A stretch of DNA of 64,000 bases from an uncultured bacterium. GTDB lineage: Bacteria > Krumholzibacteriota > Krumholzibacteriia > Krumholzibacteriales > CAZTHK01. How positions within the stretch are numbered: position 1 is the first letter of the stretch; each line of letters opens with the position of its first letter. The notes below the pieces were generated by a model. It made no database searches, was not told the DNA's origin, and worked only from the letters and a program-made list of their open reading frames with translations. The translations under genes and the position numbers were made by a program. Below are positions 3,884 through 52,974 of this stretch, piece by piece. The DNA is taken from the NCBI GenBank assembly GCA_964613215.1, contig CAZTHK010000011.1, forward strand, positions 61,297 through 125,296. The letters run 5' to 3'.

Positions 3884-6325
3884 TCACCGGATCAATACCA
3901 TCTTCCTTCTCTGCATGAACTCCCCCGCCCTGATAGAGTAGAAATATACTCCGCTGGCCACCGCTTTGCCGCCGGTGTCTGTTCCCTTCCAGTCTATGCT
4001 GTAACTGCCCGCATCACGTGTTCCATCCAGGAGAATGCTTACCAGCCGGCCCGATGCGTCATAGACCGCTATGCGTACGCGGCCGGATCTTTCCAGGTCG
4101 AATCTAATGGTGGTAGACGGATTAAAGGGATTGGGGTAATTCTGTTTCAGGCAATTCTTCCACGAGACCTCTGGTGTGTCCCCTCCGGTAATATCCTCCG
4201 GCGCCAGCAATGCGAACCCGCTCTCGTTTCCATGGATGTCCACTGCCGCCACCTTGTAATAGTATATCTCATCCCATCTCCAGCCTGCATCGAAAAGAGC
4301 GGTATCACACGGGGAATCAATGAAATTACCGGGTCCGGGCTGAAATCCCGAGGTGGTCCCCCGGTAGACGTTGTAGCAGGCCAGGTCCGGTTCGTTATTG
4401 GGCTCCCAGCTGAGCTGGAGTCCCTCCGGCTGGTAGCTCTGCTCACCGGCCAGGCCAAGCGGCGGGCAGGGGGATAGATTATCCACCGAGTATCCGCTGT
4501 CCGGATCCGAAGTCCAGAAAAGCGCCGGATCATCGGTGTGAGCTATCACCTGGAAGTAATGATAATCCTGGCAGACTGAGGTGGAGTCGAACAGGGTCTC
4601 CACTATCATGGAGTAATGCTCCAGGCGGTAAGCCTCCTGGGTGGAAACCAGCATCCAGTAGTAGGGCTCACCGTTTAAAAAGCCGTGACGCAGAAGGGGG
4701 ATTTCCTCCCTCCCTGCTTCTTCCCCGGCAACCGCTTCAGAGGGGCTTCGAACCGCGAAACCTCCCTCACGGATAACAGCCTGCGCCTGCTCGGTCTCCA
4801 GCGCCCTCCAGACGGTATAACTGCTCACCTCTCCCCTCTGGTAGTCGAACAGGGTTGCATCCCAGGCCAGGTTAACACAGCCACCTTCGTCTCCCGGTAC
4901 ATCTTCCACCGAATGGATAACCGGCGGGAAAGAACCGGCCTCCCCGTTAATGCCGATCTGCTGACAGTATACATCATCATCGTTGTCCCGTTTATCGAAC
5001 CATGTAATAAATGCTCCACCTGCTCCATCCGTTGATATCTGGACCCGTTTCTGGTCCTGGGCCGCCCTGCATACCGGCAGCCCGTTTACATCCCAGAGAG
5101 CCGTCCCCGAAACATCAAACCGCTGTGCATAAATATCATACTCATAGGTCCGGAAATCATACCAGGTGATAATAGCCCCTTCGTCTCCGTCGGTTGTTAT
5201 CTCAGGCCCATCCTGGTCATAAGTTGCCGCGCAGACCGCTACTCCATCTGCAGTCCACTGCACTGACCCGGAAGCATCCACCCGCTGGGCGAATATATCC
5301 GTGTCGCTCCCCCGGTTATCCTCCCAGGTAATAATCGCGCCCCCGGTACCGTCAGGCACTATCTCCGGGGCGTACTGGTCATCCGGTGCATTGCAGACAG
5401 CCACTCCGCCCACACTCCACTGAACCGTACCAAACACATCGATGCGCTGAGCATATATATCATAGTGAGTGCCCCGTATGCCATACCATGCAACTATCGC
5501 TCCCCCCGCACCATCGGACGCTATGCTGGGCAAAAACTGGTCTCCCGCAACAGAACAGAGGTCCACCCCGTCTGCGGTCCACTGGGTTACTCCCGAAGCA
5601 TCTATCTGCTGAGCATATATGTCATAATCTATCCCACGGTAATCTTCCCAGGTTATTATGGCACCTCCCTCTCCATCCGGGATTATTTCAGGGGAGTACT
5701 GGTCCCCCGCCGCCGCGCAGATTGCCACCCCGTTTGCAGTCCACAGGACCGAACCGGAAGCGTCTACACGCTGGACATATATATCATAGTCACTGCCCCG
5801 GAAATCCTCCCAGACCACGATGGTTCCACCCCCCCCGTCGCTGACCAGACGCGGATTCTCCTGCTGGCCCGTTGCAGTGCAGAGGGCAACCCCGTTGACA
5901 GCCCACAGCGCAGCCCCCGACGCATCTATACGGCCTGTATATATGTCATAGTTGCCGTTGCGCAGATCTTCCCATGCTACTACAGCTCCTCCTGCTCCGT
6001 CGGATGCTACTTCGGGGTAGTACTGGTCTCCCGATGCCGCACATAGAGAGATTCCACCGGTAGCCCAGCGGACTGCTCCGGTAATATCTATACTTTGAGT
6101 ATAGATATCAAAATCACTGCCCCGGCTATCATACCAGGCGATGATTGCTCCATCCTCTCCGTCGTATGCTATTCTGGGCCTGTTCTGAGAACCCGGTTCC
6201 GTGCAGACAGGCACTCCATCCTCGTTCCACCAGGCCCGAAGTGATGGCGAAGCCAGGATGAACAGGCAGATCAGTAGCGGAAGAGACACTTTAGCAAATT
6301 TGTACATAGCTGTTTCTCCTTTCAA
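3884..6325 (-). CDS. secreted repeat protein with a T9SS C-terminal sorting domain
   Basis: N-terminal signal peptide, then 8 tandem ~47-aa repeats (G-DQ-P-I-DG-GGAI-W-D-R-G-DIYAQR-D-SG-W-GV-C), an FN3-like segment, and a C-terminus ...NPSTTIRFDLERSGRVRIAVYDASGRLVSILLDG...GVYFYSIRAGEF.. matching the Por-secretion (TIGR04183-type) sorting tail. Confidence 0.8.
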   Translation of the reverse strand: MKGETAMYKFAKVSLPLLICLFILASPSLRAWWNEDGVPVCTEPGSQNRPRIAYDGEDGAIIAWYDSRGSDFDIYTQSIDITGAVRWATGGISLCAASGDQYYPEVASDGAGGAVVAWEDLRNGNYDIYTGRIDASGAALWAVNGVALCTATGQQENPRLVSDGGGGTIVVWEDFRGSDYDIYVQRVDASGSVLWTANGVAICAAAGDQYSPEIIPDGEGGAIITWEDYRGIDYDIYAQQIDASGVTQWTADGVDLCSVAGDQFLPSIASDGAGGAIVAWYGIRGTHYDIYAQRIDVFGTVQWSVGGVAVCNAPDDQYAPEIVPDGTGGAIITWEDNRGSDTDIFAQRVDASGSVQWTADGVAVCAATYDQDGPEITTDGDEGAIITWYDFRTYEYDIYAQRFDVSGTALWDVNGLPVCRAAQDQKRVQISTDGAGGAFITWFDKRDNDDDVYCQQIGINGEAGSFPPVIHSVEDVPGDEGGCVNLAWDATLFDYQRGEVSSYTVWRALETEQAQAVIREGGFAVRSPSEAVAGEEAGREEIPLLRHGFLNGEPYYWMLVSTQEAYRLEHYSMIVETLFDSTSVCQDYHYFQVIAHTDDPALFWTSDPDSGYSVDNLSPCPPLGLAGEQSYQPEGLQLSWEPNNEPDLACYNVYRGTTSGFQPGPGNFIDSPCDTALFDAGWRWDEIYYYKVAAVDIHGNESGFALLAPEDITGGDTPEVSWKNCLKQNYPNPFNPSTTIRFDLERSGRVRIAVYDASGRLVSILLDGTRDAGSYSIDWKGTDTGGKAVASGVYFYSIRAGEFMQRRKMVLIR
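5035..6190 (-). repeat. tandem ~141-bp (47-codon) coding repeats, 8 copies
   Basis: Periodic DIY(A/V)QR...SG..W...GV..C units in the translation of the 3884..6325 ORF. Confidence 0.7.
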
Positions 6326-7559: not shown

Positions 7560-8237
7560 TTATTTTTTTAATATAATTCTGGCATCGGCAATGATGCAAT
7601 CATCCCGGGTGCACATCACCGGGTTGAGGTCGATGGACTCCATATATTCCTCCAACCGCAGGCACAGCTCAGAAAATTCGATCATCAGCCCGGTAAGCTC
7701 TTGACGGTTTACCGGTTCATTGCCCCGGAATCCATTGATAATATCTGCGGCTTTCAGCTCGCCTATCATAGCCTCGACATCCTCTTCCCTCAGCGGGGCC
7801 ATCCTCATGGAGGTATCCTTGTAGATCTCCACACCCACTCCTCCAATTCCCAGAAGAATTACCGGTCCGAACTGCTGATCCTCTTTGGCTCCGACGATAA
7901 GCTCTGCTCCCTTCACCATCTCCTCCACCAGCACGCCCGCAAACCCCTCCATCCCGCTGAACTGCTCGAAGACGGCCTTTAGCTTTTTCCCGTCCGGAAT
8001 ACCTACCACTACCCCCCCGGCATCGGTTTTGTGAATTATTCTGGGGGAGACTACCTTTGCCACCACCGGATAACCCTGTTTATCTGCAAAAGTGACCGCC
8101 TCTTCTGCCGTTTCAGCCAGATAATAGGATGGCACCTTAAATCCCTCCTCCCGGAGGATCTTCTTGGCATACGGCTCGAGCACCCAGCCGGTCTTGCGGG
8201 ACCGCTTCAGTATCTCAGTGATATTCTTGCTTAACAA
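7560..8237 (-). CDS. acdB: acetyl-CoA synthetase (ADP-forming) beta subunit, ATP-grasp domain
   Basis: 225-aa ATP-grasp protein (PVVAKVVSPRIIHKTDAGGVVVGI...) overlapping the upstream alpha subunit by 7 nt. Confidence 0.8.
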   Translation of the reverse strand: MLSKNITEILKRSRKTGWVLEPYAKKILREEGFKVPSYYLAETAEEAVTFADKQGYPVVAKVVSPRIIHKTDAGGVVVGIPDGKKLKAVFEQFSGMEGFAGVLVEEMVKGAELIVGAKEDQQFGPVILLGIGGVGVEIYKDTSMRMAPLREEDVEAMIGELKAADIINGFRGNEPVNRQELTGLMIEFSELCLRLEEYMESIDLNPVMCTRDDCIIADARIILKK

Positions 8238-9622
8238 TTATTACACCTCTTCATGGCTTCCACCATAAGTATGGCGCCCTCGATGGAGTGAGCTACCGGC
8301 ACATTGTTCAGCTGGAATCCCTCTATAATCATGCGGTACTTATCCACGTGGGGAACATAGGCAATTATTGGTTTATTCTCCTCCTGATAGAGCTGGCTCA
8401 GCCTGGCGCCAACATCGGAGGTAACTTCAGGAAGGTAGGGGAGCAGAAGTACCAGAATACAGTCTATATTGTCCAGCTTACTCAACTCGCCGGCCGCTAC
8501 CACGAAATCATCGTCTTTGGCACTGCCGGTCAGATCAAGCGGATTACTCAGTGAGGCGATGGATTTGATGCTCCCACTCAGCTTCTCCCGGACACCCTGC
8601 TGGACTCTATCAGCCAGTAAGGGCACCTCCAGCCCGGCCTCTGCACAGGTATCCACTGCTACCGCACCATGCCCTCCGCTGGCAGTTACTATACCAACCC
8701 GCCCCTGGATGAGCCTGGGATAGCAGCTCAGCGATTCACAGAAGGAGACCATCTGGTACTCATCCTCCGCTTCCACCAGCCCGAACTGTCTCATAACCGA
8801 TGAGAATATGTTGTAATCGCCCGCTATGGAGGCGGTGTGGCTGGACACCGCCCTGCTCCCGGCAGAGCTCTTGCCCGCCTTCATAACTATGACCGGTTTG
8901 GGGGACCGGTGGGCCGCCTGAACGAATTCCCTCCCCTCACCCTCACCGAACCCCTCTATGTAGAAGGCAATAACTTCGGTAAGATCATCCCTGGCAAAGA
9001 ACTTGAGCAGGTCCAGTTCATTTACCGCCACCTTGTTCCCGATGCTGACAGCCCTGGAAAGCCCCACTCCCTGGCTGGAGAACTTTACCATCTGATCCAC
9101 CAGGATCCCTCCGCTCTGGCTTACTATGGCCACATTGCCAGCCTCCGGCCTGACCATCCTCTCGCTGGGAAGAAAGAAACAATCGACTTTGGCCGGCGAA
9201 TATATACCCAGGCAGTTGGGACCAATCACCGGGAAATCCGCCTCCCCGGTGATGGATAACATCTCCTGGTGGAGGTCATCACGCCCCGCTTCGGCAAACC
9301 CTCCCGAGATCACCGCCGCTCCGCCCACCCAGCACTGAATACATTCCCGCAGCACCTCCGGAACATACTCCGCCCTCACAGCTATGACAGCCAGATCAAT
9401 CCGCTCGGGGATATCAGATATGCTTTTGTACAGCTTCCCCTTGTAATAGGTGCCTCCCCTGGGATTTACCCCGTATACCTTGACCGGGTAGCGGAGATAG
9501 TTCTTGTTGTATATCACGTTAGCGGGGTGCCGGTCATTGTGGAGCGAGACACCCACCACCGCCATGGTCTCCGGCTCGAAGAGGGTTTTAAAATCCAAGC
9601 AACTCTCCTCCCTGCAATTCAT
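8231..9622 (-). CDS. acdA: acetyl-CoA synthetase (ADP-forming) alpha subunit (CoA-binding plus succinyl-CoA-synthetase-like domain)
   Basis: 463 aa with a CoA-binding N-terminus (MAVVGVS...VYGVNPRGG) and a ligase-CoA domain. Operonic with acdB. Confidence 0.8.
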   Translation of the reverse strand: MNCREESCLDFKTLFEPETMAVVGVSLHNDRHPANVIYNKNYLRYPVKVYGVNPRGGTYYKGKLYKSISDIPERIDLAVIAVRAEYVPEVLRECIQCWVGGAAVISGGFAEAGRDDLHQEMLSITGEADFPVIGPNCLGIYSPAKVDCFFLPSERMVRPEAGNVAIVSQSGGILVDQMVKFSSQGVGLSRAVSIGNKVAVNELDLLKFFARDDLTEVIAFYIEGFGEGEGREFVQAAHRSPKPVIVMKAGKSSAGSRAVSSHTASIAGDYNIFSSVMRQFGLVEAEDEYQMVSFCESLSCYPRLIQGRVGIVTASGGHGAVAVDTCAEAGLEVPLLADRVQQGVREKLSGSIKSIASLSNPLDLTGSAKDDDFVVAAGELSKLDNIDCILVLLLPYLPEVTSDVGARLSQLYQEENKPIIAYVPHVDKYRMIIEGFQLNNVPVAHSIEGAILMVEAMKRCNNC

Positions 9623-9952: not shown

Positions 9953-10801
9953 TTATTCCCGGTAATCATATTCTATATCGAATATCTCCCCCCTCCAGTA
10001 GGGATAGGGCCCGCTTTCCAGATGCCACTCCACCTCTCCCCGGGATGGTACCAGCCAGCCATCCGCCTCCATGTAATCTGAGAAACTTCCCTTCCAGGGG
10101 ATCTCCCTGTACCGTTCATTTGCTTTATAGTAGCGTCGGGGAGTAAAAATCGAGACCGCCTCTCCCTCACCGTTGAACTCGAACTCCAGGGATACTGTTA
10201 TCCCCGAATCCGACAGAGTGGCCTTAGCCCTGTTTTCATCCACCGGCTCCCAGGATACTCCCTGAGAGGGGAGCAAAGCGGTAGGGAACCAGACCGCCTC
10301 GGCAAGATATCTCTGCAGGGCTCCCTGACTCAGCTTGAGGTCACCACTCTCGTTGACCACCGGAATCAGATACAGTATCCTCCCTATCATTCCCCCCCTT
10401 CCCCTGATGTACGAATCGCAGACATTTACCGGCACTCCCGGCATCATTGATATTTCCGCACTCCATACGAAGCCGCGAGGCTGCACCGAGAAACGTTGAT
10501 CCGCCTTCATGGCCAGCCAGCCCTTCATCCCCGGGCGGGACCTGAACCCGCCCCTCTGGGATAGAACCGCCCCCGATATTACCGGCCTGCCATCCTGCAG
10601 AACATGCCGGAAGTAGCGTTTCACCGGAGCGGGGAGGTTCTCGATACCGGACAGGTCCACCCTTTCCCCCGGACCATCCGCCCCGGTGGCAACCTCACGG
10701 GAGAGGGCGGATACATACTGTGACCATTTCCGCCGGCCAAATAAAAACGCCAGTGTGAATACAACTGCTACAACAATTATTATAAACACAATACGAATCA
10801 T
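9953..10801 (-). CDS. hypothetical membrane-anchored protein with one N-terminal TM helix
   Basis: 282-aa ORF. The N-terminus MIRIVFIIIVVAVVFTLAFLFG forms a TM helix followed by a soluble domain. No confident family assignment. Confidence 0.5.
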   Translation of the reverse strand: MIRIVFIIIVVAVVFTLAFLFGRRKWSQYVSALSREVATGADGPGERVDLSGIENLPAPVKRYFRHVLQDGRPVISGAVLSQRGGFRSRPGMKGWLAMKADQRFSVQPRGFVWSAEISMMPGVPVNVCDSYIRGRGGMIGRILYLIPVVNESGDLKLSQGALQRYLAEAVWFPTALLPSQGVSWEPVDENRAKATLSDSGITVSLEFEFNGEGEAVSIFTPRRYYKANERYREIPWKGSFSDYMEADGWLVPSRGEVEWHLESGPYPYWRGEIFDIEYDYRE

Positions 10802-11268: not shown

Positions 11269-13413
11269 ATGAAGGTAGCCATAATATACAACCAGGACGT
11301 GTCCGGGGTGATAAACCGCTTCGGCATGCAGAACAAGGAAATCTATAATCCCAACACGGTAAAGATGGTGGCGGAGGCTCTGGAGAAGGGGGGACACAAT
11401 GTAAAGATAATCGACGGCAACATGCATATTATCGAAAACCTTACCGACTTCATGCCCAGGGTGGTGGAGGGAGAGAAGATGGGTATGGTATTCAACATGG
11501 CATACGGGATTCAGGGGGAGAGCAGGTATACCCACCTTCCCGCCATGCTGGAGATGATGGGGATACCCTATGTGGGGTCCGGCCCCACCGGCCATGCCAT
11601 GGCCCTGGACAAGGTAATCACCAAGATCCTGCTTCAGAAGCACAACATCCCCACTCCGGACTTCCGGGTCTTCTCCGGACCCGATGAGGATATCAGCGGG
11701 GTTGAATTTCCGGTTATAGTAAAACCCAAGATGGAGGCGGTCTCCTATGGCATGAAAGTGGTACATAACCAGGAGGATCTGAGGGAAGCGATAGGGCACA
11801 TTGTGGAGGAGTTTCAACAGCAGGCCCTGGTGGAACAGTTTGTCCGGGGGAGGGAATTCTGCGTGGGCCTTCTGGGCAACCATGACCTGCAGGCCTTTCC
11901 CATAGTGGAGATTGATCTGGGCAATGACCCGGATGCCATCCAGAGTGTGGATGACAAGAAGAGCAATCCCAGAAGAAAGATATGTCCCGCCGACCTTAGC
12001 CCGGAAGCGGCCGGATGGATGGTGGAAGCCAGCAGGAAATGCTTCCATGCCCTGGAGATGAAGGACTTCGCCAGGGTAGACCTCCGGATGGATGGTGAAG
12101 GCAATATATACGTGCTGGAGATAAACTCCATGGCCAGCCTGGGCAAGACCGGCTCATATGTATACGCAGCCGGGGAGACGGGACTCGATTATAACGGGCT
12201 GGTCAACTCCATGCTGGATGTGGCGTCGGTACGCTACTTCTCGCGTCATCTGGCCGAAGAGGAGGATTCGGGATCAAGATCCACCTATGTCCGCATTCGA
12301 ACCTTTCTCAGCGGGAGGCAGGGCAGAACCGAAAAGATGCTGGAGAAGATGGTCAACATCAACACCCACACCAGGAATGTGGAGGGGGTCAACAAACTTG
12401 GCAGCATGGTGGCAAGCCGGCTGGCCAGGCTGGGATTCAGCCAGCAGGTATTCCCCAGGGTTGAAACGGGGAACATCCTGTTTTTCAGCAATACCAGGGA
12501 TAAACATTACCATGTGCTGCTGCTCAGCCACCTGGATTCCTCCATCCCCTTCAGAAAACAGCGAAGCTGCCGTATCGCCCAGCACAGGATACACGGAACC
12601 GATGTGTGGGAATACAAGGGAGGGCTGGCAGTTATGATATCCGCACTACAGGCACTCCGGTTTGTCCGGAAGCTGCCCAGGATCAAGATCGGGATTTTAC
12701 TTGCTGCCGACAGCCAGCTGGGGGGAAGGGGAGCAGAGGAATATATCCGCAGGTTTTCCCGGAGAGCTGGGGCGGTGATCGGCCTGAAGGGCGGAGGGCT
12801 GAAAGGCACCGCGGTTACCTCCCGTTCTGGTGCGGCCCGCTACTCCTGCCAGATGAACCTGGAGGACGGGGTGAATGCGGATGATGTAGCCCGGTCGGTG
12901 GGCAAATTCTCCAGGATACTGAACAGATGGGCTAAACTTACCGACGAATCCACCGGGGTAATTGTAACCCCCTGTGATGTTGAGATTAACGCAAATGTTT
13001 CCGACCGGATAGCCCACGGGGAGGCAATCCTCAGTGTCCGGTTCAACGATCCCGGCCTTATAACCGGTATAGACCGAAAGATCAGGAAAATGGTCCAGAA
13101 GGCCAACCGGGCGAAATTCCGCCTCCAGATAGAAGGAGGATTGAAAAGACCGCCCCTGATAAAGAACGAACCCGGCGACCGGTTATGGGAAAAGATAAAG
13201 TCCATAGCCGGCAAAAGGGATATCAGGCTGCTGGAGGAGCATCGCTGGAGTTCAGCGGATATCTGTTTCGTTCAGGAGGCCCGGGGGGTAATCGATGGAA
13301 TGGGGCCGGTCGGAGCGGAACACAAGGAGGGTGGCGAGTATATTCTCGCCCACAGCCTGATAGAACGGGCCACCCTGCTGGCACTTTCCCTTTGTGAACT
13401 GAGCAGGGAGTGA
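11269..13413 (+). CDS. fusion protein: D-alanine--D-alanine ligase-like ATP-grasp domain (N-terminal) plus M20 (ArgE/DapE-like) metallopeptidase/deacylase domain (C-terminal)
   Basis: Residues 1-~320 are Ddl-like (GESRYTHLPAMLEMMGIPYVGSGPTGHAMALDKVITK ... YVLEINSMASLGKTGSY). Residues ~400-714 carry M20 motifs HLD, GTDVWEYKGG and the C-terminal GMGPVGAEHKEGGEYIL, which fits the AH...EY motif. A GGAGA-type RBS precedes the ATG. Confidence 0.75.
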   Translation: MKVAIIYNQDVSGVINRFGMQNKEIYNPNTVKMVAEALEKGGHNVKIIDGNMHIIENLTDFMPRVVEGEKMGMVFNMAYGIQGESRYTHLPAMLEMMGIPYVGSGPTGHAMALDKVITKILLQKHNIPTPDFRVFSGPDEDISGVEFPVIVKPKMEAVSYGMKVVHNQEDLREAIGHIVEEFQQQALVEQFVRGREFCVGLLGNHDLQAFPIVEIDLGNDPDAIQSVDDKKSNPRRKICPADLSPEAAGWMVEASRKCFHALEMKDFARVDLRMDGEGNIYVLEINSMASLGKTGSYVYAAGETGLDYNGLVNSMLDVASVRYFSRHLAEEEDSGSRSTYVRIRTFLSGRQGRTEKMLEKMVNINTHTRNVEGVNKLGSMVASRLARLGFSQQVFPRVETGNILFFSNTRDKHYHVLLLSHLDSSIPFRKQRSCRIAQHRIHGTDVWEYKGGLAVMISALQALRFVRKLPRIKIGILLAADSQLGGRGAEEYIRRFSRRAGAVIGLKGGGLKGTAVTSRSGAARYSCQMNLEDGVNADDVARSVGKFSRILNRWAKLTDESTGVIVTPCDVEINANVSDRIAHGEAILSVRFNDPGLITGIDRKIRKMVQKANRAKFRLQIEGGLKRPPLIKNEPGDRLWEKIKSIAGKRDIRLLEEHRWSSADICFVQEARGVIDGMGPVGAEHKEGGEYILAHSLIERATLLALSLCELSRE

Positions 13414-15095
13414 GCTCTATGGATAACCGGAAAATCGAATCGGCTCTTAAACCGGATCATTCGGGTAAGACAGCCCGGGCTGCCGGTGGAATGGTCTCCA
13501 CCGCCTTTCCACTGGCCACCGGGGCGGGGGTGGAGATTCTGCGCCGGGGCGGAAACAGCATCGACGCAGCCTGTGCGGCAGCACTGGCACTGGCTGTCTG
13601 CGAACCCCAGTCCAGCGGTCTGGGAGGACAGACCATGATGCTGATCGGCAGAAGGAACAAAGTCATCACCATAGACGGCTCCTCCCGGGCACCCTCCCTA
13701 ACCCATGTGGGAGCAATCTACAAACCGGACCGCTCCAGGGGATACCGGGCTACCACAGTCCCCGCCACCCCGGCCACCCTGGGATACGTCCAGAGGAAAT
13801 ACGGCCGGCTCGAGTGGTGGCAGGTGGTGAAACCCTCCATCCGGATCGCCCGGGAGGGTTATACCGTCACTCAGCTGCAGAGCCGCCTTCTGGACAGGGA
13901 GCAGAAGAACTTCAATCTGGTGGAATCAAAATCGGGGCTGCAATATTTCTACAGGGATGGAAAACCCTACAGGCCGGGAGAAACCTTCCGGCAGCCCCAC
14001 CTGGCGGAGCTGCTGGAGACCATCGCAGAGCGGGGAGCGGAAGAATTCTACACCGGCGAGACCGCCCGCAGGATAGATGCGGATATGAGAAAGAACGGGG
14101 GGCTGCTCAGGGAGGATGACCTCGCTCTGATTCCCTGGCCCATCGAAAGAAAACCACTGAGAGGGAAGTTCCGCAGTCTCACCGTCCATACCATGCCTCC
14201 CCCCGGCTCGGGCAGAAGCCTTCTATTCTGCCTGGCCCTGCTGGACCGGCTGTCTCCCCAGGACCTTGCCGGAGATCCCCTGAGGCGGGCCCACCTGCTG
14301 GCAGAGATATTCCGCAATGTCCTGCTGGAGCGTTCGGACAGGCCCTTCGACGCCAACTTCTATCCCCAGGTCAGCGAGAAGGATATGCTCAGCAGTGATT
14401 TCACCGGCAAAACCATAGAAAAGATAATCTCTGCCACGGCTCCCACCCTGCCCATCAAGGAGACCGAGGATGAAAAGAGCGGGGAAACCACCCACCTCTC
14501 GGTAATGGACAGCAGCGGTACCGCGGTAAGCCTGACCCAGTCCATAGAAAGGGTATATGGCAGCAAAGCCGCAGCGGACGGCCTGGGTTTCCTCTACAAC
14601 AACTACATGATGTCCTTTGAATACAATGTGCCCTCCCATCCCTACTACCTCCGGCCAAATGCAGTGCCCTGGGCCACAGTGGCCCCCAGTATCATCTTCG
14701 ACGGGGAGGGTCCATGGATGGCCCTGGGAAGCCCGGGGAGCGAACGGATCATATCCACCCTGGCCCAGTTCCTGATCAATCTGATAGACGAAGGAATGAG
14801 CCTGGAAGAGGCCATGCTCAGACCCAGGCTGCACTGCTCCCTGGGAGGGAGGGTGAGCCTGGAGGCGGAACGATTTTTCCCCGGACTGTCGGAATCACTG
14901 GAGGAGAAGGGTTACCGGATCAACCCCCGAGAAGCATTCTCCTTCTATATGGGGGCAATACACGCGGTAATGAAATGCCGGAGTGATGATGGCTTTCAGG
15001 GGGTAGCGGAGGAGAGAAGGGATGGAACCGCCGGGGGGTTATCGGCAGGGGAAAATCAGGCCGGGGGCGAGGAAAAACCCGGTGATAAAGAGTAG
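13410..15095 (+). CDS. ggt: gamma-glutamyltranspeptidase (Ntn-hydrolase)
   Basis: GGMVSTAFPLATGAGVEIL... and the catalytic-Thr region ETTHLSVMDSSGTAVSLTQSIE. A GTG start overlaps the stop of the preceding gene by 4 nt, indicating translational coupling. Confidence 0.85.
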   Translation: MSSMDNRKIESALKPDHSGKTARAAGGMVSTAFPLATGAGVEILRRGGNSIDAACAAALALAVCEPQSSGLGGQTMMLIGRRNKVITIDGSSRAPSLTHVGAIYKPDRSRGYRATTVPATPATLGYVQRKYGRLEWWQVVKPSIRIAREGYTVTQLQSRLLDREQKNFNLVESKSGLQYFYRDGKPYRPGETFRQPHLAELLETIAERGAEEFYTGETARRIDADMRKNGGLLREDDLALIPWPIERKPLRGKFRSLTVHTMPPPGSGRSLLFCLALLDRLSPQDLAGDPLRRAHLLAEIFRNVLLERSDRPFDANFYPQVSEKDMLSSDFTGKTIEKIISATAPTLPIKETEDEKSGETTHLSVMDSSGTAVSLTQSIERVYGSKAAADGLGFLYNNYMMSFEYNVPSHPYYLRPNAVPWATVAPSIIFDGEGPWMALGSPGSERIISTLAQFLINLIDEGMSLEEAMLRPRLHCSLGGRVSLEAERFFPGLSESLEEKGYRINPREAFSFYMGAIHAVMKCRSDDGFQGVAEERRDGTAGGLSAGENQAGGEEKPGDKE

Positions 15096-15277
15096 ACTGA
15101 ATCAAGTTACAACCGGCAGCCGATGGATAAAGGGGAAGTCAGTTTTGCTCCCTGGAATGGCAGATGGATATTTATCCGGGGGAGCATATTCGGATAAGCT
15201 GACCGGAGCAGAAACATTTTCAGGCAGCTTAATCAGTACCATCTTTTAATGCCATTATTTCTATTATTATGCTATAA

Positions 15278-15757
15278 ATGAGCGGTGGTGATAAAACAAT
15301 GAACCAGCAGGAAAATATACCCCGGGGCGTTACCATCAGGCAAATGCGGATGGATGATTATCCCTCCCTGATTAAACTATGGGAGAAGGCGGGGCTTCCC
15401 TACAAGCCGGAAGGAAGGGACAGGAGGGAGAATATCGAGAAGGAGCTTGAAGGCGAAGCTTCCCTGTTTCTGGTAGCAGAGAAGGAGGGGAGAATAATCG
15501 GTTCGGTTCTGGGCACCCACGACGGGAGAAAGGGCTGGATCAACCGCCTGGCGGTAGCACCGGATTCGCGCCGTAAGGGTGTGGGAAGAGCCCTGGTAGC
15601 AGAGGTGGAGCTGCAACTCTCACGTATGGGAATAGCAATAGTGGCTTGCCTTGTAGAAGACTGGAACGAGGATTCCATCCGGGTATTCAGGAGACTGGGG
15701 TATACCAGCCATCCCGATATTACCTATTTCTCCAAGAGGAAGCATCCGGGGGTGTAG
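15278..15757 (+). CDS. GNAT-family N-acetyltransferase
   Basis: 159 aa with the acetyl-CoA-binding motif RRKGVGRALVAEVE and GNAT topology. An alternative start lies at 15299. Confidence 0.8.
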   Translation: MSGGDKTMNQQENIPRGVTIRQMRMDDYPSLIKLWEKAGLPYKPEGRDRRENIEKELEGEASLFLVAEKEGRIIGSVLGTHDGRKGWINRLAVAPDSRRKGVGRALVAEVELQLSRMGIAIVACLVEDWNEDSIRVFRRLGYTSHPDITYFSKRKHPGV

Positions 15758-16130: not shown

Positions 16131-17714
16131 GTGATAGATATGAAGATAAGTACGGTTGAACAGATGAGAGAGCTGGACAGCGCTGCTATCAGCGATTACG
16201 GGATCGCCCAGGAGCTCCTTATGGAGAACGCCGGGCTGGCCACATTCTTTGTGATAATGGATCAGACAGGAGTGGAGGGAAAGAATTTCGTTATCTTCTG
16301 CGGCCCGGGGAATAACGGCGGGGACGGCCTGGTGGTGGCCAGAAAGGTACATTCACAGGGGGGCCATGCCACCGTCTTTCTTATGACCGGCCAGGAGAAA
16401 TTCAAGGGGGCGGCAAAACAGAATTTCGAGATTGCCTCACGGATGGACCTGGATATCCGTAGTGCGGATGAGAGGGATATGGTGGATGCCTCCCTTGAGC
16501 AGTGCCATGTAGTAGTGGATGCCATATTCGGCACCGGTATCACCAGGGATGTGGAGGGTAGATATAAAGACATAATAGAGCTTATAAACGGAAGCGGCAA
16601 AACCGTGGCGAGTGTGGATATCCCCTCCGGAATAAGCGGGGATAACGGCAGGGTGATGGGGACTGCGGTCAGGGCGGACTTCACTGTAACCTGCGGTCTT
16701 CCCAAGACAGGAAACATCCTCTATCCCGGCTATCAGCGGTGCGGCAGGCTGTATGTTACCCATATCTCTTTTCCCCCGGAACTGTACAACCGGGAGGAGA
16801 TAATGACGGAGACCACCCGTCCATCCATCCTTCCGGAGAGAAAAAGGGATGGGCACAAGGGGACCTTCGGCCAGGTGCTGTTCATAGCCGGTGCCGCCGG
16901 CTACTACGGAGCCCCTCACTACTCCGCCCTCTCCTTTCTCAAAGCGGGAGGAGGATACTCCCGGCTGGCCACTCCCCGCTCGGTGGCTCCATACATAGCC
17001 ACCGGCGGCAAGGAGATCGTATTCATTCCCCTGGAAGAGACCGCAGAGGGAAGCATCTCCGCCGGTAACATGGAGAACATCCTGGATATGGCCAACCGCA
17101 TGGATATGGTGGTTATCGGCCCGGGGCTCTCCCTGCAGGAGGAAACCGGGGAACTGGTCAGGAAGCTGGCGGAGAAGATAGAACCGCCTCTGCTGATCGA
17201 CGGGGACGGAATCACTGCTGTTTCAAAAGACATGGCTGTGGTCCGCTCCAGAAAGAGCCCCACTGTACTCACCCCCCACCCCGGGGAGATGTCCAGGATA
17301 ACTTCCAGAAACATCTCAGAGATACTGGAAGACAGAATCTCCATTCTCAGGGATACCTGCCGGGACCTTGATTCCATTGTTGTTCTGAAAGGGGCCCGTT
17401 CCCTTACCGGTACACCGGACGGAAAGGTGAGAATCAATATGTCCGGCAACCCGGGTATGGGCACAGCCGGCTCGGGGGATGTGCTGACCGGCTCCATCAC
17501 AGCCATGTACGGGCTGGGACTGCCCCTGGAAGAGGCGGTCACCACCGGGGTGTTCCTGCACGGACTGGCCGGCGACCTGGCTGCAGAAGAGAAGGGGGAG
17601 GATGGAATCACCGCCGGGGATATCATGAATTGCCTGCCCGCTGCAGTCAGGAAGTTCAGGGACCATCCGGACAGAATTATAGAGAACTGCTATCACAACA
17701 TCTTCACGGTATAA
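16131..17714 (+). CDS. nnr: bifunctional NAD(P)H-hydrate epimerase / ADP-dependent dehydratase (YjeF N- and C-terminal domains)
   Basis: N-terminal CGPGNNGGDGLVVAR is the YjeF-N signature. The C-terminal carbohydrate-kinase-like part has GPGLS...GSGDVLTG. Confidence 0.9.
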   Translation: MIDMKISTVEQMRELDSAAISDYGIAQELLMENAGLATFFVIMDQTGVEGKNFVIFCGPGNNGGDGLVVARKVHSQGGHATVFLMTGQEKFKGAAKQNFEIASRMDLDIRSADERDMVDASLEQCHVVVDAIFGTGITRDVEGRYKDIIELINGSGKTVASVDIPSGISGDNGRVMGTAVRADFTVTCGLPKTGNILYPGYQRCGRLYVTHISFPPELYNREEIMTETTRPSILPERKRDGHKGTFGQVLFIAGAAGYYGAPHYSALSFLKAGGGYSRLATPRSVAPYIATGGKEIVFIPLEETAEGSISAGNMENILDMANRMDMVVIGPGLSLQEETGELVRKLAEKIEPPLLIDGDGITAVSKDMAVVRSRKSPTVLTPHPGEMSRITSRNISEILEDRISILRDTCRDLDSIVVLKGARSLTGTPDGKVRINMSGNPGMGTAGSGDVLTGSITAMYGLGLPLEEAVTTGVFLHGLAGDLAAEEKGEDGITAGDIMNCLPAAVRKFRDHPDRIIENCYHNIFTV

Positions 17715-18551: not shown

Positions 18552-20081
<1,530 letters not shown>

Positions 20082-20327: not shown

Positions 20328-21443
20328 ATGATTATCGGCGTACCCAGGGAGATAAAAGACAACGAATACCGGGTTGCTCTGCTTCCGGTCGGAGCTGAGA
20401 TGTTCATCAGGAACGGACACAAGGTGCTGGTCCAGAAGGGCGCCGGGGAGGGAAGTGGTATCTCCGACACGGAATACCGCAGTGCCGGAGCCAGGATAAT
20501 ATCCAGGGCCAGAGATGTTTTCAGCAAATCCGATATGATCATTAAGGTCAAAGAACCTCAGCCCAACGAAATCAAGAATATCAAAAAAGACCAGATAGTA
20601 TTCACTTATTTCCATTTTGCCGCAAGCCGGAAGCTTACCAACGGGATGAAGCGCTCGGGAGCCATAAGTATAGCCTACGAGACCATGGAGCTGGAAGACG
20701 GGGCCCTTCCCCTGCTCACCCCCATGAGTGAAGTGGCCGGACGTATGGCAGTTCAGGAAGGAGCCAAATATCTGGAGCGTCCCATGAAGGGAAGGGGTAT
20801 CCTGCTGGGTGGTGTTCCCGGCGTGGAACCTGCTCATGTGGTTATAATCGGCGGCGGTATCGTGGGAACAAACGCTGCCAAGATGGCTGCCGGGCTGGGA
20901 GCCAGAGTAATCCTGCTGGATATAGATCTGGACCGGCTGAGATACCTCAGCGATGTACTCCCTCCCAACGTAACCCTTATGATGTCCAATCCTGAGAATA
21001 TCAGGCAGCATGTGGCAATAGCCGACCTTCTTATCGGAGCGGTGCTGATAAGCGGGGCCAAGGCCCCCCGTCTGGTCACCAAAAAGATGGTCAGGAAAAT
21101 GAAGAATGGTTCAGTGGTAGTGGATGTGGCGGTGGACCAGGGCGGCTGTATCGAAACAATCAAGCCCACCACTCATACCAGTCCCATCTACAGACTTTAC
21201 GATGTTATTCATTACGGAGTGGCAAATATGCCCGGTGCAGTAGCCAGAACCTCCACCTACGCTCTGACCAACGCCACCCTGCCCTATGCGGTAGACATAG
21301 CCAACAAGGGTTACAGGCAGGCAGCCCTGGACAACAAAACCATAAGAACCGGTATAAATATCATCGACGGAAAGATAACCAATCAGGCAGTAGCCAGTGC
21401 ATTCAGGATGAAGTATGTGCCTGTGGAGGATGTTATCTCCTGA
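20328..21443 (+). CDS. ald: alanine dehydrogenase
   Basis: 371 aa MIIGVPREIKDNEYRVALLPVG...VIIGGGIVGTNAAKMAAGLGARV, a typical Ald. Confidence 0.9.
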   Translation: MIIGVPREIKDNEYRVALLPVGAEMFIRNGHKVLVQKGAGEGSGISDTEYRSAGARIISRARDVFSKSDMIIKVKEPQPNEIKNIKKDQIVFTYFHFAASRKLTNGMKRSGAISIAYETMELEDGALPLLTPMSEVAGRMAVQEGAKYLERPMKGRGILLGGVPGVEPAHVVIIGGGIVGTNAAKMAAGLGARVILLDIDLDRLRYLSDVLPPNVTLMMSNPENIRQHVAIADLLIGAVLISGAKAPRLVTKKMVRKMKNGSVVVDVAVDQGGCIETIKPTTHTSPIYRLYDVIHYGVANMPGAVARTSTYALTNATLPYAVDIANKGYRQAALDNKTIRTGINIIDGKITNQAVASAFRMKYVPVEDVIS

Positions 21444-23834: not shown

Positions 23835-24455
23835 CTACCGGTTTTCCAGCTCGTAGGCTAACCTCAATTTATACTTCTTCTTACCATCCTCCTGCATGGG
23901 GACTATAATAAACTGGACGTACCTGTTAGGTGTGCTCAAAAACCTGTCCGTCCCGTCTATATTAATCCTGGCCTCCATATAGTATCTTCTCTCGGTCTTC
24001 CAGCAATCATCACACGGTTCGCCTGCCACCGAATCTATGGGAGCCCAGTCATCCTCAGGCACGAGAGGAGGCTCTATGCTGAATTCGAGTCTTTCCGTCA
24101 CTAATCTCTGGCCGAGCTTATTTTCAATTGGATCACCGCTGGCAGACCTGAACATATTATTGGTTACAGCTATCTCTTCATCCCTGTCGTAATAATCTTT
24201 CCCTCCGTCATTATCCTCCGGCATCACAAACATGTATTCTTCATACAGGATCTGCTTGTATCGCTCTATGTTTCTGTCGTCGTATGACTTAACCAGATTT
24301 ATCAGGCAATGTTCCTTCTCTGTCAAATCCTTGTACTCACTCTTATTATTTTCTTCTATCGGCTCTTCTTTGGGGTCGAGGATACAACCGGATGAGAATA
24401 CCACCATCACTGAAAGTGAAACTAAAAACAATTTTTTATATACGGACATTATCAT
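23835..24455 (-). CDS. hypothetical lipoprotein
   Basis: Lipobox VVFSSGC. 206 aa, acidic. The gene is AT-richer than its surroundings. Confidence 0.6.
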   Translation of the reverse strand: MIMSVYKKLFLVSLSVMVVFSSGCILDPKEEPIEENNKSEYKDLTEKEHCLINLVKSYDDRNIERYKQILYEEYMFVMPEDNDGGKDYYDRDEEIAVTNNMFRSASGDPIENKLGQRLVTERLEFSIEPPLVPEDDWAPIDSVAGEPCDDCWKTERRYYMEARINIDGTDRFLSTPNRYVQFIIVPMQEDGKKKYKLRLAYELENR

Positions 24456-24641
24456 CCCTCCTGTTACTGATAAAATATATCATATTTTCATTCTTTTTTC
24501 AATAGTGGAGTTAATATAAATCGTAAATAGATCATAATATTACTGCAAAGTTTCGACAATCTTATCAGACAGGCCCTTGCTCTCCGGCTGGTATTCCGCG
24601 CCGGGTCCATATAAACTGTAAAACGGTTTTGGATTATAGTA

Positions 24642-25214
24642 CTATTCCGCAGCGTATAAGCCCCTCAAGTGTCCCGATGAATTCAGGTTTTCTGTAATAT
24701 CCTCCCATCTGATCATTTGCCAGTACTGACCGCTTGTATTATTGAAATACAGTATCGCATCTCCTTCGTAGGTAACGGTCTCTCCATCTTCGGTTACGGT
24801 TATGGTGTACTCTCCCCGCAGTTCAGCTTCAGTCGCACCTGCATTTTCCTCATCCCAACTCCCCTCTTCCGGAAAGTCGAGAGTCCGGCTGCCGGTTACC
24901 GACTTAAGACTGTTTAGAAAACCCATCTCCCTCTCCCTGCCCCAATCACTGCTGAAAATACCCGAATAGTCACTTATAGCTCTCTGACTGGGTATGAATA
25001 TAAAATTTTCAGCGATAGCCTCATCATAGCCGGTATTTTCGGCAGTACCAAACCCCTTTTCCATGTTGGCAACCACACCATAGGCATCATCGGGCGGTTC
25101 AAAATCTGTTCCTCCGCCGCCGGGTGGCTCCGGTTCCCTGGGATCGAAAAGGCACCCATTCAAACCAAGCGCAGAAATAAGCAGGAAAATCAATATGAAC
25201 TTTTTGCCATTCAT
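24642..25214 (-). CDS. hypothetical lipoprotein, a possible distant paralog of the neighbouring lipoprotein
   Basis: Lipobox LGLNGC followed by FDPREPEPP, compare ILDPKEEP in the neighbour. 190 aa. Confidence 0.6.
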   Translation of the reverse strand: MNGKKFILIFLLISALGLNGCLFDPREPEPPGGGGTDFEPPDDAYGVVANMEKGFGTAENTGYDEAIAENFIFIPSQRAISDYSGIFSSDWGREREMGFLNSLKSVTGSRTLDFPEEGSWDEENAGATEAELRGEYTITVTEDGETVTYEGDAILYFNNTSGQYWQMIRWEDITENLNSSGHLRGLYAAE

Positions 25215-25236: not shown

Positions 25237-27312
25237 TTAAAAGCTGAACTTCAAGCTCGCATTCACATCCCAGTATTCCTTCCTCTTTTCAGAGATATAC
25301 GGCCCGTAATTTTTAATATACGCAATATCCATATCCAGTTCTCCAAGTCCCGATAAATCGCTGTATTTCTTGAATCCCAGCAGCAGAGTCCCCGATTCGT
25401 AATCGGTGGATGATGTTACCACAAAATCGCCCCCGGAAGAACCAATCTGATTTCTCTTCTTTAATCTGAATTTTGATTCCGCCCTTATCTGCGTATCCTT
25501 GCTGAAATTGTAGCTTAAAGCTGCGGCAAGGCCATCCTCCAGATTCTCCTGATAGGGGCTGTAGACCTCTATGCCCCTCTCATTATCAAGATAACTGCCC
25601 TTATCCTTGAGAAGATAGGTATACTTGAAGCTTAAGCCCAGAGGCTTGAAAACCCTCAATGTGGCGGAGGTATTGAGCCCGGTGGTCCGCTGAAGATAGT
25701 TCTTGTCCGCAGTATAGACATAATCGGTATACTCCATCCTTATGGTGTAGTCCTGCTGCAGGGTTATCCAGCTATCAGGCCTGAACTCTATGGTGGGTTC
25801 TATCAGATATAGGTATTCCACCCTGTTATCGCCGGAGAAGGACTCGTCGATATTGATTATCTCATACTTATCCGCAGTGGCTGAAATGAGAGTACTTATG
25901 GACGGAAACGGCTCAGCCTGGAATCTGAGCTGGCCCTTGTAGAAAACCCTGTCTTCATCCCTGGGATTATCCTGCTCCACAATAAAGAATCTCTGTGTTA
26001 TATATGCTGTCCCCCTTAAGCTGATAAAACTCGATTTCGAAATATTCTGATTTATCCCGGCACTGAGCTCCCTGGCCTCCTCCCGGTAGGAGGATTTTGA
26101 TCCTTCACCCTTCAGGTTTACCTCCTCCCGGTTGGTGATAGTGAAGGAAGCCGCTCCGCTGGTGCTGTAATCATACACCGCTTTGGCCCTGAGTTCGGCC
26201 TTCTCGTTGGAGCGGGACATCCTTGCCTCCTCCCGGTATCTCTTGCTGTTAATGGACCGGGAGAACTGTACCTCCAGCGAAACATAGGGAAGTGGCTGAG
26301 TGAAGGAGGTGAGATTTATCTCCTCCACCTCCTTTACTATCTCTTCCTGCACCGCTTTGCTGGGATCATCCAGAATCTGCAGGGATTGACCCCTGGGAGG
26401 CTCCACACTCCTCTCTACTGCATCTGATTGTCTATAACGGAAATCCACCAGCTTTTTTTTGCCCTTCCCGTAGGTTACCCTGGTCCGCATGGTATCTCCC
26501 CAGCTGGGCATCCCTCCGAAGGTAATATCACCCACATCGCTGCTCTCCTTGGTACTGGAATATCCGTAACTGCCGTTGACCATCAGCTGATCGGTAATAT
26601 GGTAACCCATGAAGCTGCTGGCACTTCCTACGTATGTTCTGTCGTACTTGAAGTCATCCCGCCCCTGCTTCAGATCGCCCTTGAAGGAAAACTGCGAGTT
26701 TATAGAGGGGATAAGGCCCTTTTTATAGATCACTTCGGCATCGGCCCTCTGTTTATCCATGACCAGGGCCTTTCCATACCTTGCCAGCCCGGCGGATGTA
26801 CTCTTGTTATAATTTTCCCCCAGGGAAAATTTAACGGAATATTCTCCCCGGCTCGCTCTGGTAACGGTACCGGAGAGGTTCTTGTTTATCCGCTGCATAT
26901 CCCGGCCCCTCTTAACCGTTTTGTTCACATTCACAGAATTCATAAAAGTCCATCCGCTGGAGTGGAGATAACTGGTCTTCATCGAAGTTCCCAGGGATAC
27001 ATCCACCTCTCCCGCTTTCATGGTGGACTCCCAGACCGGCTTAAATCCTGATTGTTCCTTTGCTGCTCCCTTCTCTCCATCGCCAGCGGCAGTGCTATCT
27101 GATACAGAGGTGTCCGGAAACACGATGGAGGTTGAGTCGGATGTTCCGCCCGGAGACTGCTCCCCGGCTGCCACCCCGTCTTCTGCCATCAAGGGGGAGG
27201 AGGACAGAATGGCAACTCCCAGAATCAGGGATACCATCACCACTAAGACTGCCGCAGCAGTAATACTCCCGGATGCAAAAACATCAATGATGGTGTATCC
27301 GGATCTCCTCAA
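25237..27312 (-). CDS. putative outer-membrane beta-barrel protein
   Basis: 691 aa, rich in S/T/Y/N/K, with alternating amphipathic segments and a C-terminus ...NASLKFSF ending in Phe as in OMP beta-signals. N-terminal hydrophobic signal. Confidence 0.55.
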   Translation of the reverse strand: MRRSGYTIIDVFASGSITAAAVLVVMVSLILGVAILSSSPLMAEDGVAAGEQSPGGTSDSTSIVFPDTSVSDSTAAGDGEKGAAKEQSGFKPVWESTMKAGEVDVSLGTSMKTSYLHSSGWTFMNSVNVNKTVKRGRDMQRINKNLSGTVTRASRGEYSVKFSLGENYNKSTSAGLARYGKALVMDKQRADAEVIYKKGLIPSINSQFSFKGDLKQGRDDFKYDRTYVGSASSFMGYHITDQLMVNGSYGYSSTKESSDVGDITFGGMPSWGDTMRTRVTYGKGKKKLVDFRYRQSDAVERSVEPPRGQSLQILDDPSKAVQEEIVKEVEEINLTSFTQPLPYVSLEVQFSRSINSKRYREEARMSRSNEKAELRAKAVYDYSTSGAASFTITNREEVNLKGEGSKSSYREEARELSAGINQNISKSSFISLRGTAYITQRFFIVEQDNPRDEDRVFYKGQLRFQAEPFPSISTLISATADKYEIINIDESFSGDNRVEYLYLIEPTIEFRPDSWITLQQDYTIRMEYTDYVYTADKNYLQRTTGLNTSATLRVFKPLGLSFKYTYLLKDKGSYLDNERGIEVYSPYQENLEDGLAAALSYNFSKDTQIRAESKFRLKKRNQIGSSGGDFVVTSSTDYESGTLLLGFKKYSDLSGLGELDMDIAYIKNYGPYISEKRKEYWDVNASLKFSF

Positions 27313-52956: not shown

Positions 52957-52974
52957 TTTGGAGATATTCTAAAA

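Follow-up and report, generated by a model that had tools for sequence, protein, structure and literature searches.

A widespread fusion of a Ddl-like ATP-grasp ligase and a degenerate M20 peptidase domain, with alternative gamma-glutamyl-type partner enzymes and an ion-homeostasis gene context

An ATP-grasp ligase paired with, or fused to, a hydrolase that reverses its reaction is known from RimK/RimB, RloC/RloA and glutathionylspermidine synthetase/amidase, the products being (poly)glutamate or gamma-glutamyl amines. The RimK/RimB and RloC/RloA(/RloB) pairs of ATP-grasp enzyme and peptidase, together with (poly)glutamate, have been linked to osmotic stress tolerance. The osmolyte N-acetylglutaminylglutamine amide (NAGGN) is made from an operon of the order asnO-ngg-glutamyl aminopeptidase which is induced by osmotic stress, the peptidase belonging to family M42. 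Enzymes of the glutamine amidotransferase (GATase) family, namely yeast Dug2p-Dug3p and Francisella Cgc1, can stand in for gamma-glutamyltranspeptidase (GGT) on gamma-glutamyl peptides, and yeast Dug3p is described as active only when bound to Dug2p. Here a gene is described that encodes a 714-aa protein joining a D-alanine-D-alanine ligase (Ddl)-type ATP-grasp domain to an M20 peptidase-like domain, and which is followed closely by a gene of the GGT family. It was found in a 64,000-nucleotide stretch (the window) of contig CAZTHK010000011.1, positions 61,297 to 125,296, from assembly GCA_964613215.1 of an uncultured bacterium of the Krumholzibacteriota. The family to which the protein belongs is a widespread variant of the 'ATP-grasp ligase plus amide hydrolase' theme.

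The fusion gene and the genes that accompany it in other genomes (the module) resemble each of these systems in part. The RimK, Rlo and glutathionylspermidine systems use other ATP-grasp and hydrolase families, and in the fusion the hydrolase-like domain attached to the ligase is dead. With the NAGGN operon the module shares the placing of an ATP-grasp dipeptide ligase, a glutamine-hydrolysing enzyme and a metallopeptidase-like protein in one operon, but the parts are non-homologous, Ngg being a fusion of a GNAT acetyltransferase and a RimK-like ATP-grasp domain and AsnO a class-II GATase. The Ngg model TIGR03103 was not among the listed hits of the fusion protein (best 25 of 61), the GATase found beside the fusion in some genomes is of class I, and a GNAT gene is not conserved there; the GNAT protein of the window itself matched TIGR03103 weakly, with 31.9 bits against a cutoff of 569. 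The Dug and Cgc1 enzymes are similar in that a GATase-family enzyme and GGT are interchangeable, as are the two partner types of the fusion. However, Dug3p belongs to class II of the GATases and the partner of the fusion to class I, Dug2p contains WD40 repeats but lacks a ligase domain, and the fusion module is known from the adjacency and mutual exclusivity of genes. An M20 domain is also carried by Dug2p. The features of the window that make up the fusion and its partner are as follows:

11269-13413, forward strand: fusion gene, ORF of 714 aa with ATP-grasp and M20-like domains
11269-12243, forward strand: predicted Ddl-fold ATP-grasp ligase domain, fusion residues 1-325 (Pfam and NCBIfam matches, Ddl alignment, Foldseek)
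12244-12303, forward strand: interdomain linker of variable length, fusion residues 326-345 (column conservation, low predicted confidence)
12304-13413, forward strand: predicted CPG2-like M20 pseudo-peptidase domain, residues 346-714 and stop codon (CPG2 alignment, Foldseek)
13404-13409, forward strand: AGGGAG, Shine-Dalgarno-like sequence for the GGT gene, within the last codons of the fusion gene
13419-15095, forward strand: GGT-family Ntn hydrolase, predicted to be cytoplasmic, without lid loop and non-canonical (Pfam G_glu_transpept, PF01019, E 2e-114; alignments)

Homologues of the fusion protein were sought among 8,000 candidate protein clusters (clustered at 90% identity), 1,477 of which matched it at E<=1e-5. 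The best 120 of these clusters were all full-length, with 711-751 aa (one of 691 aa) and 54-83% identity, and full-length homologues came from NCBI, JGI, ENA and Logan assemblies. When a single genome was scanned for each species, at least 586 species of bacteria and archaea proved to encode a relative of the fusion; the 80 best-scoring of these loci were used for the locus comparisons reported below. This subset includes, among the archaea, Methanosarcinales (ANME-2c) and Nitrosopumilaceae and, among the bacteria, Syntrophomonas, Ignavibacteria/Melioribacteraceae, Propionigenium, Ilyobacter, Bacteroidales (Draconibacterium, Carboxylicivirga, Saccharicrinis), Acidobacteria, KSB1, Binatia, Gemmatimonadota, Nitrospinaceae, Dehalococcoidia, Desulfobulbaceae and Burkholderiales. 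Conservation is strong, bacterial and archaeal homologues sharing 40-67% identity.

The reading frame is unbroken through the linker in all homologues that were aligned. The linker itself has a mean top-residue frequency of 0.43, compared with 0.77 for the N-terminal and 0.57 for the C-terminal domain, as counted over 193 non-identical members of the family (the set used for all column counts given here), and residues 326-336 had a predicted local distance difference test (pLDDT) score below 50 in an AlphaFold2 model (26 homologues, pLDDT 82, predicted TM-score 0.54). Because independent full-length homologues exist and the frame is continuous over the linker, the fusion is not a frameshift artefact. 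The artificial joining of two genes by assembly or sequencing, which had been named as a hazard when the fusion was first proposed, is practically ruled out by hundreds of full-length homologues of the same length and domain order; more than 120 of these were listed, and relatives are encoded by at least 586 species. The other hazard named at that time, an architecture both common and already characterised, materialised in its first half only. The architecture is common, not rare, and the family is a large one which is uncharacterised in the literature searched and is filed under generic domain labels, the only ones found being 'D-alanine-D-alanine ligase', 'M20/M25/M40 family metallo-hydrolase' and 'ATP-grasp domain-containing protein'. 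In agreement with the original prediction that the fusion is undescribed, no published characterisation of it or of its gene neighbourhood was found in that literature, which did not include the amidoligase survey of Iyer et al. (2009), Kaur (2012) or Ganguli (2007), so that an earlier prediction in those papers is possible.

Residues ~31-320 of the fusion match Dala_Dala_lig_C (PF07478, E 7e-31) in Pfam and PRK01372 (E 2e-47) in NCBIfam, and DdlA/B structures were returned at a TM-score of ~0.8 when the AlphaFold2 model was submitted to Foldseek. The Ddl models nevertheless fall short of their cutoffs (161.5 vs 243 bits for PRK01372 and 146.9 vs 245.65 for TIGR01205), and the protein lies under the cutoff of every NCBIfam model listed for it (best 25 of 61 hits, all of Ddl or M20 type). 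With the Ddl enzymes (DdlA/DdlB, VanA) the fusion shares its fold, its domain order and identical ATP, Mg2+ and phosphoryl-transfer residues. Alignment to Yersinia pestis DdlB and Pseudomonas aeruginosa DdlA/B placed K152, E189, K230, R269, D271, E284 and N286 of the fusion at K144, E180, K215, R255, D257, E270 and N272 of Ddl, respectively, and all seven are invariant in the family (193/193). By contrast, the residues which bind D-Ala in Ddl have been exchanged, S150 for V158, H63 for Y79 and Y216 for the K231 position, which varies between K, L and R. The EREVS motif (E15) is absent, an invariant FGxQNKExYNP being found at the N-terminus instead, and a family-specific GESRYTH loop is present; the added M20-like domain of 370 aa is a further difference from Ddl. 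Because its ATP, Mg2+ and phosphoryl-transfer residues are invariant, the ATP-grasp half is predicted to be a competent ligase, with a substrate pocket other than that of Ddl. Its chemistry, formation of an acyl-phosphate and attack by an amine, is presumably that of Ddl.

The second half of the protein (residues ~354-713) matches the NCBIfam models PRK07338/PRK06133 (M20 'hydrolase'/glutamate carboxypeptidase) with E-values of 1e-26 to 2e-24, while its score of 22.4 for Pfam Peptidase_M20 (PF01546) lies under the gathering score of 24.6. The two-subdomain M20 fold is kept, the AlphaFold2 model being matched by Foldseek to the glutamate carboxypeptidase CPG2 (1cg2) with an E-value of 6e-26 and a TM-score of 0.81 over 389 columns, and both the catalytic-like and the dimerisation subdomain are retained. 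The joining of a Ddl-type ATP-grasp to an M20-like fold in one 714-aa ORF, as originally read from the letters, is thus confirmed by Pfam and NCBIfam and by the predicted structure for both halves. At the metal-ligand sites of CPG2 the window protein has H421 (=H112), E448 (=D141), Q483 (=E176), K507 (=E200) and K686 (=H385), and at the site of the general base, E175, it has S482. The original prediction was right that the general-base EE motif is altered (S482/Q483 at E175/E176), but its statement that the metal-ligand motifs are kept did not hold, as the five ligands are all kept in none of the 193 members. The equivalents of E176 and E200 are never acidic, at most one canonical ligand is left in 158 members, and H685, the His of an 'AEH' sequence, is one residue out of register with the H385 ligand and is not conserved.

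Active stand-alone relatives, at 25-28% identity, keep the motifs GHLDTV/HxD, GPGxxDMKGG, DEE, xE and HSxxEY, and they occur in unrelated gene contexts. The fusion resembles CPG2 and the other M20A glutamate carboxypeptidases in its whole two-subdomain fold and in the structural Asp residues D423 and D481, which are conserved; unlike CPG2, the degenerate ligand sites and general base of the family would leave no di-zinc site possible. Because the metal site is lost in 193/193 members, the M20 domain is not a usual deacylase or peptidase, and as judged from its residues it is a pseudo-peptidase for which that activity would be impossible. Its most likely function is in dimerisation, as a scaffold or in binding a ligand. 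The C-terminal domain is less conserved than the N-terminal one, with an interlineage identity of 33-48% against 60-72%. The best candidate for a stand-alone pseudo-M20 protein (P0134) was rejected as a fragment on a 1.2-kb contig.

As originally predicted, the gene following the fusion is a GGT (E 2e-114), and its coupling to the fusion is conserved in about half of the 80 loci. The ORF is of 561 aa, ends at 15095 and has been given the starts 13410 and 13419. A GTG at 13410 overlaps the fusion stop codon TGA (13411-13413), and from this it had been proposed that the gene starts inside that stop codon. This is unlikely. The ATG at 13419 is preceded by AGGGAG at a distance of 9 nt, and translation from it gives a protein (MDNRKIES...) whose beginning aligns with that of partner GGTs (MDFKEIES...); because of this Shine-Dalgarno sequence and N-terminus, the start is likely to be ATG 13419, leaving a gap of 5 nt and no overlap, which is still tight. 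The closest relatives have only 1 nt between the two genes. In tblastn searches a GGT homologue (50-72% identity) was found directly downstream of the fusion in ~40 of the 80 loci and anywhere in the locus in 48, so that in many phyla, and in roughly half of the loci (39-48 of 80), the fusion has GGT as its conserved partner.

The GGT of the window scored 336.5 with TIGR00066, below the equivalog cutoff of 357.85. Residues were mapped by alignment to E. coli and B. licheniformis GGT for a subfamily of 42 partner GGTs, in all of which the Thr nucleophile (TT motif, E. coli T391) is invariant and a signal peptide is absent. The pocket is changed at R114 (to S, an Arg two positions further along being invariant), N411 (to E), Q430 (to Y), D433 (to A, D or S) and G484 (to S), and the lid loop is absent, as in Bacillus GGT. 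These proteins thus do not have the whole canonical pocket (R114, N411, Q430, D433, S462/S463), nor do they show a sign of periplasmic export. With a pocket altered in this way, the enzyme may act on something other than a usual gamma-glutamyl compound.

De novo clustering of all ORFs neighbouring the fusion again gave the pair of fusion and GGT and revealed further partners; for counts of groups, the loci were dereplicated at 80% identity into 61. The third gene, found in 34 loci, encodes a protein of ~257 aa of the N-formylglutamate amidohydrolase (FGase) family. In 17-18 loci without GGT or FGase, a class-I GATase of ~190 aa is encoded directly upstream of the fusion, 10 nt from it in many loci; these loci belong to Bacteroidales, Ignavibacteria, Fusobacteria, Desulfobulbaceae and one metagenome-assembled genome labelled Hyphomicrobiales. 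The partner GATase is nearest to GuaA-N (GMP synthase subunit A), TrpG, PabA and CarA, and its Cys-His-Glu triad is intact. The gaps between partner and fusion genes are 1-40 nt. Of the 61 dereplicated groups, 30 contained GGT, 26 contained FGase and 16 contained GATase. No group had both GGT and GATase, so that these two are mutually exclusive. Both families work via gamma-glutamyl-enzyme intermediates. A comparison of GGT-paired with GATase-paired fusions found no partner-specific residues in the fusion, which fits a coupling via a shared metabolite. In the closest relatives of the window protein (65-67% identity) the gene order is fusion-GGT-FGase-TrkA_C-unknown. The last two of these genes encode a 186-aa TrkA_C-domain protein and a protein of ~215 aa without a Pfam match (L026 12746-13950; L081 12723-13951; L082 5432-6663), both of which are absent from the window.

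Genes for ion channels and transporters recur around the fusion. Channel genes lie within or adjoin the operon in at least seven phyla, those of the MscS family in orders such as GATase-MscS-fusion (L019, L022, L023) and fusion-MscS-GGT-FGase (L035), and Mg2+ transporters of three families (CorA, MgtE, CNNM/CorC) are found in or beside it, the order in Nitrosopumilus being fusion-CNNM-(CorA)-...-GGT-FGase. An MscS gene and/or a Mg2+ transporter gene occurs in 25 of the 61 groups. The distant parts of the same loci served as an internal control: of the 37 MscS genes, 25 are no more than 1.5 kb from the fusion, a density of 0.115 per kb as opposed to 0.007 per kb at 5.5-8 kb; the density of Mg2+ transporters is ~5-fold higher within 5.5 kb than farther out. 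Other recurrent neighbours are the TrkA_C (RCK_C) protein, Ion_trans K+ channels, MntP, arginine decarboxylase, agmatinase, a deoxyhypusine-synthase-like gene and GNAT-CN_hydrolase, along with a trio of a RimB-like retropepsin, a RimK-like ATP-grasp with a C-terminal TrkA_C (RCK_C) domain and an AstE/AspA-like hydrolase. In Nitrospinaceae and Desulfobulbaceae this trio was seen with MgtE near the fusion gene (L037 12502-15393; L045, L050, L051).

It is tentatively proposed that the module makes and recycles an amide derived from glutamate or glutamine for osmotic or ionic homeostasis; the substrate class, the physiological role and the part played by the dead domain are inferred. A glutamate-type solute is suggested by the combination of a predicted competent ligase, a dead CPG2-like domain, mutually exclusive partners and the clustering with turgor and cation genes. 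In such a scheme, the Ddl-descended ATP-grasp domain with its rebuilt substrate pocket would form an amide bond at the expense of ATP, while the dead CPG2-like domain would stay permanently attached as a dimerisation, scaffold or ligand-binding module. Bonds of the gamma-glutamyl amide type would be cleaved by the partner enzyme, which depending on the lineage would be GGT, usually with FGase, or the class-I GATase; the FGase-family partner would act as an amidohydrolase of the N-acyl-glutamate type. Candidate products are gamma-glutamyl dipeptides, oligopeptides and amines. Such a compound could serve as a cytoplasmic solute or counter-ion, tuned together with MscS channels and with the systems for Mg2+, K+ and polyamines when osmotic or ionic conditions change.

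Several observations weigh against this proposal. The ligase substrate class is inferred, and a synthetase co-expressed with its own hydrolase would need post-translational control, none of which is evident. In the partner GGT the residues that normally bind the alpha-amino and alpha-carboxylate groups (R114, Q430, D433) have been lost, and the GATase resembles the ammonia-supplying GuaA, TrpG and CarA and not the hydrolase PuuD/C26 (90 bits for Pfam GATase vs 31 for Peptidase_C26). In roughly one locus in four, neither partner is encoded close to the fusion. The neighbourhood evidence is correlative and comes from the best-scoring 80 of at least 586 loci, and the window itself contains no FGase gene anywhere and none of the channel, transporter and other recurrent neighbour genes named above. 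Regulatory RNA offered no clue, as no riboswitch or other regulatory RNA was detected upstream of the fusion gene either in the window (Rfam, E<=1) or in 16 other loci (gathering score). It should also be noted that the Propionigenium maris locus L014 has two c-di-GMP-I riboswitches (10494-10579, reverse strand, and 15168-15252, forward strand), which lie downstream of the fusion gene.

Three features of the family are of wide interest, namely a pseudo-enzyme domain that is permanently part of the ligase protein, a subfamily of cytoplasmic GGTs whose pocket has been rebuilt, and a clear genomic tie to MscS and to Mg2+, K+ and polyamine homeostasis. A more far-reaching view, which is rather doubtful, is that the module represents an unrecognised system of marine and sediment bacteria and archaea, such as Nitrosopumilaceae, Nitrospinaceae, ANME-2c and Bacteroidales. 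It would make a new solute or polyanion derived from glutamate or glutamine (e.g., oligo-gamma-glutamate or a gamma-glutamyl amine), recycle it by interchangeable GGT/FGase or GATase, and coordinate it with MscS and with Mg2+/K+ transport; in a variant of this view it would be a new kind of amidoligase with a GGT-family protein or GATase docked on the pseudo-peptidase. If a new glutamate-derived solute or counter-ion were indeed made, this would bear on turgor and ion balance in marine nitrifiers, methane-oxidising archaea and sediment Bacteroidota.

The main rival to the proposed synthesis and recycling of a glutamate-derived amide is that the fusion is a glutamine-dependent amidoligase, in which the GATase or a GGT-family glutaminase binds to the dead M20 domain and supplies the ATP-grasp site with ammonia, a carboxylate being amidated via an acyl-phosphate after the logic of CarA/CarB or AsnO. 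This is unlikely, although a good deal speaks for it: the minimal ~190-aa GATase is GuaA/TrpG/PabA/CarA-like with an intact triad and its gene lies 10 nt upstream of the fusion in many loci, the tight coupling of GGT and fusion genes suggests a stoichiometric complex, a dead enzyme domain is plausible as a docking platform, and NAGGN synthesis includes just such an amidotransferase step. However, the near-obligate FGase beside GGT is left unexplained by it, and two docking or tunnel interfaces would not be expected on a domain that is the less conserved half of the protein and on a fusion without partner-specific residues. An MscS gene sometimes stands between the GATase and fusion genes, many loci have neither partner, and no member of the GGT family is known to us to serve as a subunit donating ammonia.

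It is quite unlikely that the module performs a RimK-like (poly)glutamylation of peptides or proteins, or makes free oligo-glutamate, with the dead CPG2-like domain holding a C-terminal Glu and with GGT, FGase and GATase as deglutamylating enzymes. CPG2 is a C-terminal glutamate carboxypeptidase and its fold is retained by the dead domain. Each of the three partner families has homologues that shorten gamma-glutamyl chains or cleave N-acyl-glutamates: GGT of B. subtilis and CapD act on poly-gamma-glutamate and C26 is a gamma-glutamyl hydrolase. The partner GGT, moreover, is without a lid loop like that of Bacillus, RimK/RimB/AstE-like clusters are nearby in Nitrospinaceae and Desulfobulbaceae, and polyglutamate is tied to osmotic stress tolerance through the RimK/RimB and Rlo systems. 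On the other hand, the ATP-grasp domain is of the Ddl type, whose substrates are small molecules, and not of the RimK type, the operons hold no gene for a candidate substrate protein or precursor peptide, and the dead domain has few conserved polar residues across the 193 sequences.

In the original prediction the window was read as encoding a bifunctional ligase/deacylase which, with the GGT and a GNAT acetyltransferase, would build or remodel an N-acyl or gamma-glutamyl dipeptide-like metabolite. The two genes that follow the GGT gene are:

15278-15757, forward strand: GNAT acetyltransferase, 159 aa (Pfam Acetyltransf_1, E 8e-18)
16131-17714: Nnr (YjeF), bifunctional NAD(P)HX epimerase/dehydratase, ORF of 527 aa

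That reading drew on the domain architecture and gene order of the window, and a GNAT with an ATP-grasp and an amidotransferase follows the logic of NAGGN. As a whole it is now very improbable, with the M20 ligands and general base gone in all 193 members. The GNAT ORF does follow, beginning 182 nt past the GGT stop, but it lies outside the conserved module, having been found in 0 of the 80 loci, and the closest relatives have the FGase and TrkA_C genes in its position. Queries with Nnr, DUF6920, the 97-aa ORF and the flavin reductase were likewise without a match in the 80 loci (tblastn). The acyl-CoA synthetase alpha subunit, the only one of the seven neighbour queries to match, gave a single weak match (29% identity, ~7 kb from the fusion, in L055). 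GNAT, Nnr, DUF6920 and acyl-CoA synthetase were ruled out as module members by these queries. The comparison of neighbourhoods therefore upheld the link to GGT and not that to GNAT, and brought out the FGase, the alternative GATase and the ion-channel context. Of the earlier reading, a small metabolite of the gamma-glutamyl type is still the best guess, while the parts assigned to an M20 deacylase, whose site is lost in 193/193 members, and to GNAT have fallen away.

An ordinary cell-wall D-Ala-D-Ala (or D-Ala-D-X) ligase with a chance extra domain is highly improbable even though the top database matches of the N-terminal domain are Ddl models and structures, because the D-Ala-binding residues are replaced, all Ddl models are missed by a wide margin and the carriers include Nitrosopumilaceae and Methanosarcinales, archaea that lack murein, and in addition no mur or ddl genes are found among the neighbours. 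The label 'D-alanine--D-alanine ligase' is thus not backed by the tests of residues and cutoffs, and reannotation would touch hundreds of genomes.

A number of other genes were noted in the window. Glutamate dehydrogenase (18552-19916, reverse strand) and alanine dehydrogenase (20328-21443, forward strand) are encoded 3-5 kb downstream of the fusion/GGT pair; their proximity is not conserved at other loci, and it could either be coincidental or reflect a link with glutamate metabolism peculiar to this locus. Upstream of the pair and on the opposite strand is a split ADP-forming acyl-CoA synthetase, with its alpha (8231-9622) and beta (7560-8237, reverse strand) genes overlapping by 7 nt. No tRNA genes were found in the window, and a 691-aa ORF and two ORFs of ~200 aa (25237-27312 and 23835-25214, respectively, both reverse strand) had no Pfam match. 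An 813-aa protein with FlgD_ig and Por_Secre_tail domains, the latter for sorting by the type IX secretion system (T9SS), is encoded at 3884-6325, BatA at 45749-47860 and a peptidase S46 at 60210-62378, all on the reverse strand; the T9SS sorting domain, peptidase S46 and BatA indicate that the window derives from a member of the Fibrobacteres-Chlorobi-Bacteroidetes (FCB) superphylum. The 469-aa ORF at 28754-30163 (reverse strand) has an unusual pairing of a TatD-type DNase domain with a radical SAM domain. A type II restriction-modification pair (52009-53586, forward strand), consisting of an N6/N4 DNA methylase (52009-52956) and a BglII-type restriction endonuclease (52975-53586), is located in an island of low GC content (0.38 vs ~0.52) on the strand opposite to that of its neighbours, and was probably acquired horizontally.

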